Below, piece after piece: positions 56,801-59,800 of a stretch of 64,000 bases of DNA; the stretch's first letter is position 1, and every line of letters begins with the position of its first letter. Source of the DNA: Bilabrum cf. latius (taxonomy: Eukaryota); contig OZ237774.1 in NCBI GenBank assembly GCA_965178125.1, forward strand, positions 372,001 to 436,000. Reading direction: 5' to 3'. Made by a program: the position numbers.

Positions 56801-59800
56801 CATGAGGAGGCCTTGTCAATTCATTCAGAGGTTCGGGAGATCCGGGAGCATACGGTAGGCAAGAAGCACCCATCGTATTCCTTGACACTCAATAATCAAG
56901 GCGTATGCTTGCTCCGTCTTTGCAGATACAGTGAGGCCTTGGCAGTTTTATTGCAATGTCGAGACCTGTCGGTTTCAACTCTAGGGCGGACCCATCCTCG
57001 CAGCGCGGTGACGTTAAGCAACATTGGTCGTTGTTTGACGCCCCTTGGGAGGCATGATGAAGCCATGGAGATATTTGTGGAGTGCAGAGGCATCCAAGAA
57101 GCGACAGTGGGCAAGCAGCATCCTGATTATGCGAAGACACTGTACGGACTTGCTTCTTGCTTGCATGCAATGGGCAGGCACGATGAAGCCTTGGAGGTGT
57201 GCATGGAATGCAGGAGTATTCGCCAGTCAGCCCTTGGCAAGCAACATCCGGATCTCATAGAGACGCTTTAGAAGCAAGCTGAGTGCCTTGGTGCCCTCAA
57301 ACGCGACAAGGAAAGGCAGGCAGTACTCGCGTAGATTGAGCAGTTGTTGCCTTGAACGGGGGGGACAACAGGTGGTGGTAGGTACACCAAGCGTTTAGGA
57401 CGAGGGCTACGCTACGCTCGCCCCTCCTTTAAAGGCATATTTAGCAACTCAAGTGTTTCCCCTATAAACCTAAATGATTTCACAGGGGGTTCCCCAAGAA
57501 CCCCTATAGAACCCCTCTATGTACCCATTTTCAGATATAAAATTTACTCCTACGAAGTAGGGGTAAATTGAAGAATTCTAATATTTAACCCCCTTATAAA
57601 CTCTAACAGCAAAGACAGAGATGTTTTAGTAAAGTAGGAAAAAATGAAGAAATTAACCAAGTGTCCAAAATATCTCTGTGTTTGCTGTAGGAACGGAAGG
57701 ATGAATTCCCAAGAGACCAAGAGACCAACCGAGGATTTCCCCAAGAGAACAAGGTATTTTATCAAGAGACCGAGGTATGTTCCCAAGCGACAAACCGATA
57801 AACCGACCGATGAACCGACCGATGAACCGACCAAGGATTTCCCAAGGATTTCCCAAGGATTTCCCAAGCGACTAAATTGTTCTCCGAAGCAACCAAACCG
57901 ATTACCCAAGAGATGATACATTATAAGGAAAACGAAAACGTATTTTAAGTCCCTTTGGAAAAGTCCCCCAAGATGCTCGGGCTTTGCCCTCCGCTCTTTT
58001 GATATCTTTTTCAAAGATTAAAATTGAGAGATTTTACAGGTCAATTATAAGAGACTTAGAAAAAATAAATTAAGTTCCCAAGATGCTCGGGCTTTGCCCT
58101 CCGCTCTTTTGATATCTTTTTCAAAGATTAAAATTAAATGTTGTAATTCCTATGATGCCACCATAAAAATTAAAAGGAAAATAAAAAACAAATTATAATT
58201 GTTTTCCAATTAAAAACACAAAAATTGATTGAAAAATTTTGACAATATAGGATACAAAGAAATATTAAAATTAATTTTCCAAGATGCTCGGGCTTTGCCC
58301 TCCGCTCTTTTGATATCTTTTTCAAAGATTGGATTTCCCAAGAGATGATAATTAAGACCATTCTATATCACTATAGTAAATGAACCCATTTTTAAAGGAG
58401 TTGATGATAGAGCATATTGTCAAGCAAATTAATCCACGTATTTGGAAAAAATTACACGAAAAACTAAAGGAATACAAGAAGCTCGGGCTTTGATATAAGT
58501 AGAAGACTATACTATAAAGTACTTATGAAGCTACATACCTACGATTTTGAAAAGGTTGTTGAGAATTTTCTATTTAAAGCACCCTCAAGACGCAAGAATA
58601 AGAAGTATGATGTTTTTGACGAAAATGATGAATATATTACATCGTTTGGTGATAGGCGGTATTAGCAATTTTACGATAGAATAGGGTATTACAGCCATTT
58701 AAATCATTTAGATACGGACCGCCAATTTAGATACTTCAAACGACACGGTATCGAAGTAAAACCAAGAACCCCAAAGTTCTTCTCACATTTTTACCTTTGG
58801 AGTTCATAAATGACACGTCAATAAATACACTAATTCATCAGGATTTAATGTATGTTTCTTACAAACCTTATCCACCCACTTTTTATACTAATCAGCGTTT
58901 TTTCCCCTATTCCAAAGACGAACTATACAATGTCTCCCGCAGGTTGCTATATCCATTCCATCCGCCTAAAACTAATATGGGTTATAGTCAATCTTATACG
59001 GAGAATGATACATTAAATATATTAACTCAGGGTCTTCATAAAAACGTTTCCGCACGCTTTCACTCATTGTGTGCTATTGCCTATCAGGACGAATTCCATA
59101 ACTGTCAAAGAAGTATATTGTTTTATTACGCTTAAATAAGCACACCCAGTGTCCAGAATTTATTTCTTCTTGGTATAGAATGATACAACAATTACAACGA
59201 CTAAATAATCCATCAATACTATTGTACTATCCTAATTCTGTATATGGAACGATGTTTACCGACGTAGGAAGAAACCCCTTAATATTTGGTGGAGTTTGGA
59301 GGAGAACACGAATATCACTATCGCTAAGAGCATAATCCATATATATTTATTATAGAAACATATATTGGGGGAGATGAATTCTCTTAACCACTATTTAAGC
59401 GTAGAAGTATTTCTACAAAATCCGTTTTGGAATTTGTGGATAGCATAAAAGACAATCATTCAAAATAAGTTTTCAACAAAAAGACAAAACACTTTAGAAA
59501 AAATAAAAACATATAGTAAATACACTAAAATGGCTCATTTTTCTTGGAAGGAAACTACAAAATCAACACCCATCGCATATGACACTCACGGAAAACGTAT
59601 TTTATACACGGCGGAAAACACAGACAACCAATTTGGAGATGATAGTATGTCATTTTAGGATTTTCAAGTATCATCACTTACAGGGAAACGATTTCCGCAG
59701 AGGAAAATGGATTTATTAGCACGACACTTAATCAAACAGGTCGAACCCCTAGACGAAGACATCAAATACTTGTATGAAAAAGCATAGGAAAAGAAACATA

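Follow-up and report, generated by a model that had tools for sequence, protein, structure and literature searches.

In the 64,000-nucleotide stretch of Bilabrum cf. latius DNA analysed here (GenBank assembly GCA_965178125.1, contig OZ237774.1, positions 372,001 to 436,000 of the forward strand; hereafter the window), the gene for a virophage cysteine protease carries a TAG triplet exactly where the proteins of its family have an invariant glutamine. TAG is used as a sense codon throughout the virophage genes at the right end of the window and also in the eukaryotic genes that precede them. We are fairly confident that these observations are explained as a whole by an intact virophage protease, a residue Gln125 written as TAG, and a code common to host and virus. 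According to this explanation, both host and virus would translate UAG as glutamine, with TAA and TGA ending their genes, and the ribosome would insert Gln at position 125 of the protease by means of a host tRNA-Gln with the anticodon CUA.

The protease gene occupies positions 58804-59340 on the minus strand and, when TAG is read as Gln, forms an open reading frame (ORF) of 178 codons ending in TGA. Five in-frame TAGs are found in it, at residues 38, 89, 123, 125 and 151, with no internal TAA or TGA; TAG therefore supplies five of its eight Gln-reading codons, the other three being CAA and none CAG. The original prediction had read NPY-TAG-F-TAG on the minus strand of this region, and the reverse complement of 58936-58974 reproduces that reading. 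The triplets are TAG TTT TAG GCG GAT GGA ATG GAT ATA GCA ACC TGC GGG, which translate as TAG-F-TAG-ADGMDIATCG when TAG is left as such, with NPY before and RHC after. The first of the two TAGs (58972-58974, residue 123) falls in a variable column, for which 172 homologs have K (50), Q (42), P (20), R (17) and others, and the second (58966-58968) is the codon of residue 125.

Judged from its sequence, the gene is intact and the catalytic residues His64, Asp79 and Cys134 are in place. His64 belongs to a GHW motif (codon CAC, 59149-59151) and is conserved in 171 of the 172 homologs, as is Cys134 (TGC, 58939-58941), while the third catalytic residue, Asp79 in FFDSYG (59104-59106), is D in 154 and N in 15 (169 together), with C in two and a gap in one. 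Contigs from three public runs (X1, X4 and X5, belonging to two studies) show no differing letters over 58815-59341 or more, so the protease TAGs are not an error peculiar to the window assembly, subject to the reservation that one of these runs may itself be the source of the window.

By its predicted structure the product of this ORF is a virophage protease of the Sputnik V9 type, with the adenain/Ulp1 fold of clan CE, in agreement with the clan CE identity put forward in the original prediction. The AlphaFold2 (AF2) model, built from a 26-sequence alignment, has a predicted local distance difference test (pLDDT) score of 93.6, and the Foldseek matches listed from the PDB at E<=0.001 are all clan CE proteases. 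Of the solved structures adenain (4pie_A, Z 13.0, root-mean-square deviation 2.6 Å over 142 residues) matches best, followed at Z 9-12 by OtDUB, African swine fever virus pS273R, RickCE, SdeA and poxvirus I7L, with Ulp1/SENP also present, and the best viral match is Sputnik V9 (template modelling (TM) score 0.88, 35% identity, E 2.4e-18). The protease has 2627 homologous cluster representatives at E<=0.001. Pfam gave no family for it, the sole match being a chance one at E 0.24. The profile alignment to adenain, which is weak (E 0.3-1), sets H64, D79 and C134 on His54, Glu71 and Cys122, with the adenain residue numbers counted along the alignment as printed; the catalytic residues of adenain are Cys122, His54, Glu71 and Gln115, the last in the oxyanion hole (PMC4246237). 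A phmmer search of the protease against the PDB led to WD40 repeat proteins, which were rejected as the sum of weak 'FQADGMDIATCGRHCIVRLWNRG' repeat matches and not homology.

Residue 125 is the sole invariant Gln column of the protease family. Gln is found there in 26 of 26 sequences in the first alignment and in 170 of 172 in the larger one, the remaining two having a Glu and a gap. Since the protein collection contained an entry, P0001, that is the window protease already translated with Gln at TAG (a choice of the gene caller, and not evidence), it is the DNA of standard-code relatives and not the protein entries that carries the codon test. In IMG/VR, no close relative was found with the single protease sequence, and 180 stretches were confirmed by tblastn with a sub-alignment of the family as query. 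The codon for residue 125 was a standard Gln codon in 80 of 80 IMG/VR homologs (CAA in 49, CAG in 31), and the aligned segment was free of in-frame stops. The chance that five random TAGs over 178 codons would meet the one invariant Gln column is about 3%. The central claim of the original prediction, that the conserved Gln just upstream of the catalytic Cys is encoded by TAG at 58966-58968, is thus borne out, the family alignment placing the invariant Gln exactly on this codon and not elsewhere.

It had further been proposed that this Gln is the oxyanion-hole residue. Here the invariant Gln before the Cys is observed and the role is a prediction, one that we regard as highly probable on the basis of the conservation pattern, the fold and the weak profile alignment, which together point to Gln125 as the equivalent of adenain Gln115. 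In the AF2 model the loop that joins strand 116-119 to the helix (134-143) with Cys134 at its N-terminus contains Gln125, and the oxyanion Gln of papain and adenain has the same location (PMC4246237). The order His, Asp, Gln, Cys is as in adenain, and a profile alignment to the Ad8 protease sets Gln125, with a two-residue gap, on the Gln located seven residues before the Cys. Several points weigh against the assignment. Gln125 precedes Cys134 by nine residues, compared with seven in adenain; in the weak alignment with the Ad2 enzyme (E 0.3-1) it falls on Gln112, three residues ahead of Gln115; and the AF2 model was itself given Gln at the TAG positions. The spacing and the Ad2 alignment would both suit a Gln125 that is indeed glutamine, yet is kept for substrate binding or loop structure. 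There is only a small chance that this is so, reduced by the standing of Gln125 as the only invariant Gln of the family, by its loop and by the Ad8 alignment. If the assignment to the oxyanion hole is correct, the side chain of Gln125 would most likely form the hole together with the backbone NH of Cys134, like Gln115 in adenain, and the mature protease would be expected from its family membership to cleave capsid precursors in the manner of other virophage and adenovirus proteases.

There is little doubt that TAG stands for Gln in both virus and host. Across the viral protease, ATPase and penton proteins, 46 columns are at least 90% conserved, and only two of these are Gln columns, protease 125 and penton 246 (63289-63291, plus strand; Gln in 25 of 26 homologs, with one gap). 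In the window TAG stands at both of them and at none of the remaining 44 conserved columns, 42 of which have the consensus residue. It is these conserved columns that decide the meaning of the codon. The description of the protease codon as the strongest single-site evidence therefore holds as to its strength but not as to its uniqueness, since penton 246 is as strong. Similarly, the proposal that the viral TAG means specifically Gln is supported with respect to Gln, but the usage is not specifically viral. The host gene for the proteasome subunit RPN11 (7610-8542, plus strand) forms one ORF containing a lone in-frame TAG at residue 77 (7838-7840), and this TAG falls on an invariant Gln found in 120 of 120 homologs and aligned with a Q of human PSMD14.

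A rival reading is that TAG, though sense, encodes a different residue, with glutamate or lysine the most plausible, and that protease 125 would then not be Gln. Most TAG columns are variable and polar, and the 23 scored viral TAG columns other than the two conserved ones are variable or leaning elsewhere, and cannot alone separate Gln from Glu or Lys. When the emissions of the hidden Markov models (HMMs) were summed over 25 TAG columns in a Codetta-like manner, the posterior was 0.745 for Q, 0.20 for E and 0.05 for K, with Leu, Tyr and Trp excluded by many orders of magnitude. Other results speak against Gln. A cruder substitution-profile likelihood on tblastn columns put Glu (-62.8) slightly ahead of Gln (-63.5). 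At protease 125 itself one of 172 homologs has Glu. Glu is the commonest residue of the homologs at ATPase 150 (13 of 24), ATPase 211, penton 102 (17 of 26) and protease 151, and other residues are preferred at the TAG columns penton 338 (D in 22 of 26) and penton 253 (L in 16 of 26); when the conservation threshold is lowered to 80%, one further TAG appears, on the conserved Asp column penton 338. ARAGORN found no tRNA-Gln with the anticodon CUA in the window, where the only tRNA gene is one for tRNA-Trp (CCA) at 42993-43065 on the minus strand. Against Glu or Lys stand the two conserved Gln columns, both TAG, with the single conserved-Glu and the single conserved-Lys column lacking TAG, and the RPN11 codon of the host. 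We therefore consider Glu or Lys improbable.

Comparison of the window with public contigs, which represent other copies or strains of the element, bears on the same question. Of 120 differences 34 were evaluated, six before 59355 (host gene and flanking repeat) being excluded, and 24 of these lay in coding sequence, of which 16 were synonymous, six non-synonymous and two changes between TAG and CAG. Among the evaluated differences, those touching TAG were always between TAG and CAG and never between TAG and GAG or AAG, as would be expected of a Gln codon and not of one for Glu or Lys. The two sites differ in direction. At 60840 (codon 27 of a 393-codon ORF) the window has TAG and the public contigs CAG, and at 63493 (penton codon 314) the window has CAG and the public contigs TAG.

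TAG is clearly a sense codon in the virus, with TAA and TGA as the viral stops. In the eight viral ORFs the in-frame triplets comprise 46 TAG, four TAA and three TGA, the TAA and TGA being terminal only. In the two other frames the same ORFs have 46 and 27 TAG, 35 and 54 TAA, and 33 and 59 TGA, so that all three triplets are similarly common out of frame. None of 17 ORFs (seven viral and ten host) terminates in TAG, and the seven viral stops are TAA in four and TGA in three. In the ATPase the alignment with homologs still holds at residue 296 of 300, just ahead of its TAA. Among the viral Gln codons of the eight ORFs TAG (46) is more frequent than CAA (41) and CAG (15), a share of 45%.

An entirely different view of these TAGs would be that the element is a decaying endogenous copy in which they are nonsense mutations, for example by C-to-T change of CAG, and the protease a pseudogene. 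The protease has no CAG, TAG is one transition away from CAG, and endogenous elements are reported often to carry stops (PMC10120064). However, decay would not be expected to yield 46 in-frame TAGs and no internal TAA or TGA in eight ORFs, nor to leave 41 in-frame CAA without an internal TAA. Overall, CAG is about as frequent as expected (71 against 65) and is depleted in no frame, and deamination specific to CAG as a source of the TAGs was ruled out by the trinucleotide counts. In addition, the consensus residue is kept in 42 of the 44 conserved non-TAG columns, the differences between copies are mostly synonymous, and host genes use TAG in a similar way. Decay is thus exceedingly improbable. 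Equally hard to sustain is editing of the mRNA from U to C, which would insert Gln under the standard code and yield the identical protein and alignments, since it would need at least 46 viral sites and dozens of host sites, since the absence of TAG from all 17 ORF ends fits reassignment better than site-specific editing, and since UAG-only nuclear reassignments are documented (PMC5304391).

Host and virus have a common code in which TAG is Gln and TAA and TGA are stops, similar to NCBI table 15. The GC-rich part of the window carries eukaryotic genes, including those for RPN11, an ATP-binding cassette (ABC) transporter, hybrid histidine kinases and a tetratricopeptide repeat (TPR) protein. 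Within positions 1-57355 there are very long intron-free host ORFs (2353, 1369, 2832, 2147 and 1365 codons, with 6-16 TAGs each) which exist only when TAG is read through. The ten host ORFs end in TGA (eight) or TAA (two), and since TAA ends just two of the ten, its role as a stop is less certain in the host than in the virus. Their Gln codons are 53 TAG, 108 CAA and 416 CAG, giving TAG a share of about 9%. The higher share of TAG in the virus (45%) fits a legitimate Gln codon under long AT pressure.

Some host genes were uninformative on the meaning of TAG. Two convergent paralogous genes for hybrid histidine kinase/response regulator proteins (24813-33311, plus strand; 33644-40087, minus strand) have blocks that are 84-92% identical, and they have one TAG in common in an identical stretch (RHVSL-TAG-ATMML). 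Their other TAGs lie in diverged parts, and the comparison said nothing on TAG meaning; the same was true of the repeat register of the TPR gene at 53258-57355. Among named organisms the closest RPN11 homologs, at about 60% identity, come from oomycetes and green algae; relatives from metagenomes, without a name, are up to 94% identical.

An AT-rich Sputnik-like virophage genome occupies the right end of the window, from about 57.4-58.3 kb onwards, and continues past the window edge at 64 kb. Up to about 57.4 kb the GC content is 0.55-0.67, and between 58 kb and the last position it is 0.24-0.39. The protease lies here among virophage core genes. A packaging-type P-loop ATPase gene is found at 59530-60432 on the plus strand (300 codons, nine TAG, stop TAA), with a Pfam AAA_22 match just below the cut-off (E 9.4e-06) and 24 homologous loci. 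The gene for the penton (minor capsid) protein is at 62554-63672 on the plus strand (372 codons from the ATG at 62554, 12 TAG, stop TGA), matches the Pfam family Sputnik V18/19 at E 1.4e-10, and was aligned with 26 homologs. At 63751-63999, also on the plus strand, is the start of the major capsid protein (MCP) gene, which continues beyond the window edge; its match to Sputnik_MCP_1st (E 0.0064) is below the cut-off because only 83 MCP residues are in the window. The 393-codon ORF (60762-61943), to which no function was assigned, has 14 TAGs, and the AT-rich part also holds a 163-codon ORF without TAG.

A 94-codon ORF with one TAG at 58525-58809 on the plus strand is convergent with the protease gene and has a Pfam match to DUF5754 just above the cut-off (E 3e-06). 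A motif near TATAGTAAA(T) is found at 59511-59521, 60753-60763, 62547-62557 and 58371-58381 on the plus strand and at 59345-59355 on the minus strand. Copies of it immediately precede the start codons of four genes, namely the protease, the ATPase, the 393-codon ORF and the penton. Its placement suggests that it may be a common promoter, perhaps recognised by a helper giant virus; the enrichment statistic for the motif is inflated, since the shuffles spanned the whole GC-rich window. In addition, a 24-nucleotide inverted repeat, 92% complementary (60433-60456 and 61926-61949), flanks a block with an 85-codon ORF and the 393-codon ORF, one arm following directly on the ATPase stop and the other overlapping the 3' end of the 393-codon ORF.

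At the left border the public contigs break at 57357/57358, directly after the stop of the host TPR gene at 57355, and no public contig bridges this point with 31 letters on each side, so that integration of the element rests on the window's own assembly. A further run, X7, labelled as possibly RNA but probably DNA, has two contigs (records 27 and 29) that arrive at 57357/57358 from GC-rich sequences unlike the window flank, and this run contains 57358-57860 and no virophage gene. Three 63-nucleotide direct repeats start at 57957, 58067 and 58268. The true left end of the virophage is therefore to be placed somewhere from 57358 to about 58300, with 57358-57868 perhaps a repeat in its own right. 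Over 57253-64000 the summed contig depth in X4 and X1 exceeds that of the host flank by a factor of roughly 10-70, and there are many variant contigs. Both would be compatible with multiple copies of the element or with free viral DNA, although the depth figure should not be taken for a copy number.

From sequence alone, a single site can hardly reveal the meaning of a codon more cleanly than when a stop codon takes the place of an invariant active-site residue, and here the protease site is backed by a second viral site (penton 246) and a host site (RPN11 77). The finding serves chiefly to support the code with clean evidence and to caution those who annotate such genomes. Pipelines using the standard code would break all genes of this virophage, and many of the host, into fragments, and the element would then likely be mistaken for a decayed relic. 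Instead it would be a Sputnik-type virophage that has long evolved inside a UAG=Gln code, with TAG its commonest Gln codon as expected under AT pressure, and by implication its helper giant virus would have to cope with the same code. This would give a named kind of host context for the TAG-recoded giant viruses of metagenomes (PMC13524828). A more far-reaching proposal, and one which at present we judge rather unlikely, is that the GC-rich eukaryote is a UAG-only Gln lineage and the real host of a code-matched viral community, including this multi-copy virophage and, necessarily, a helper giant virus able to express TAG-laden genes. If so, this lineage could represent the kind of host still lacking for the TAG=Gln giant viruses that are known from metagenomes only, and the code would act as a host-range lock for both viruses.

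In the paper texts searched we found none joining virophages with a UAG/Gln code; the word 'virophage' has no occurrences in the text of PMC13524828. Nothing was found on the oxyanion hole of the virophage cysteine protease. The nearest statement comes from PMC6905037, which mentions that an ochre tRNA is present in some virophages.

Among known proteases the closest is Sputnik V9, the virophage protease PRO, which belongs to the four virophage core genes (PMC6905037). The window gene resembles it in predicted structure and is likewise placed beside the packaging ATPase, the penton and the MCP start, and it differs from it in having TAG as most of its Gln-reading codons, that of the invariant Gln included. 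The MEROPS entry for PRO, C120 ('mavirus peptidase', clan CE), is grouped with adenain (PMC10318531). Adenain itself, the adenovirus protease (AVP; MEROPS C5), has the same order of His, acid, Gln and Cys and, by family membership, the window protease would be a capsid-maturation protease like it. The two are 15-18% identical, the third residue is Glu in adenain and Asp here, and the window protease gives no evidence for a peptide or DNA cofactor.

With respect to the code, nuclear codes in which UAG and UAA differ in meaning, including UAG-only ones, have been described (PMC5304391, PMC11687900), the use of code 15 by crAss-like phages has been validated (PMC9523058), and giant-virus metagenome-assembled genomes best called with code 15 have been catalogued (PMC13524828). 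The UAG-only nuclear codes and table 15 agree with the window in having TAG as sense and TAA and TGA as stops. The nearest parallel is provided by the endogenous polinton-like and virophage-type elements of Streblomastix strix, which use the TAA/TAG=Gln code of their host, a feature that the authors interpret as pointing to a long-standing association (Bellas et al. 2023, PMC10120064). From what is reported there, both cases are integrated small double-stranded DNA viruses of a protist with their genes in the variant nuclear code of the host. They differ in that TAA and TAG are both Gln in the Streblomastix elements, whereas in the window only TAG is reassigned and TAA ends four of seven viral ORFs, and in that the window element is a virophage of the Sputnik type and the genome around it GC-rich. 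That endogenous viruses follow the variant code of their host has been published before (PMC10120064), and the protease and its neighbours in the window are an extension of that principle, not a new one.

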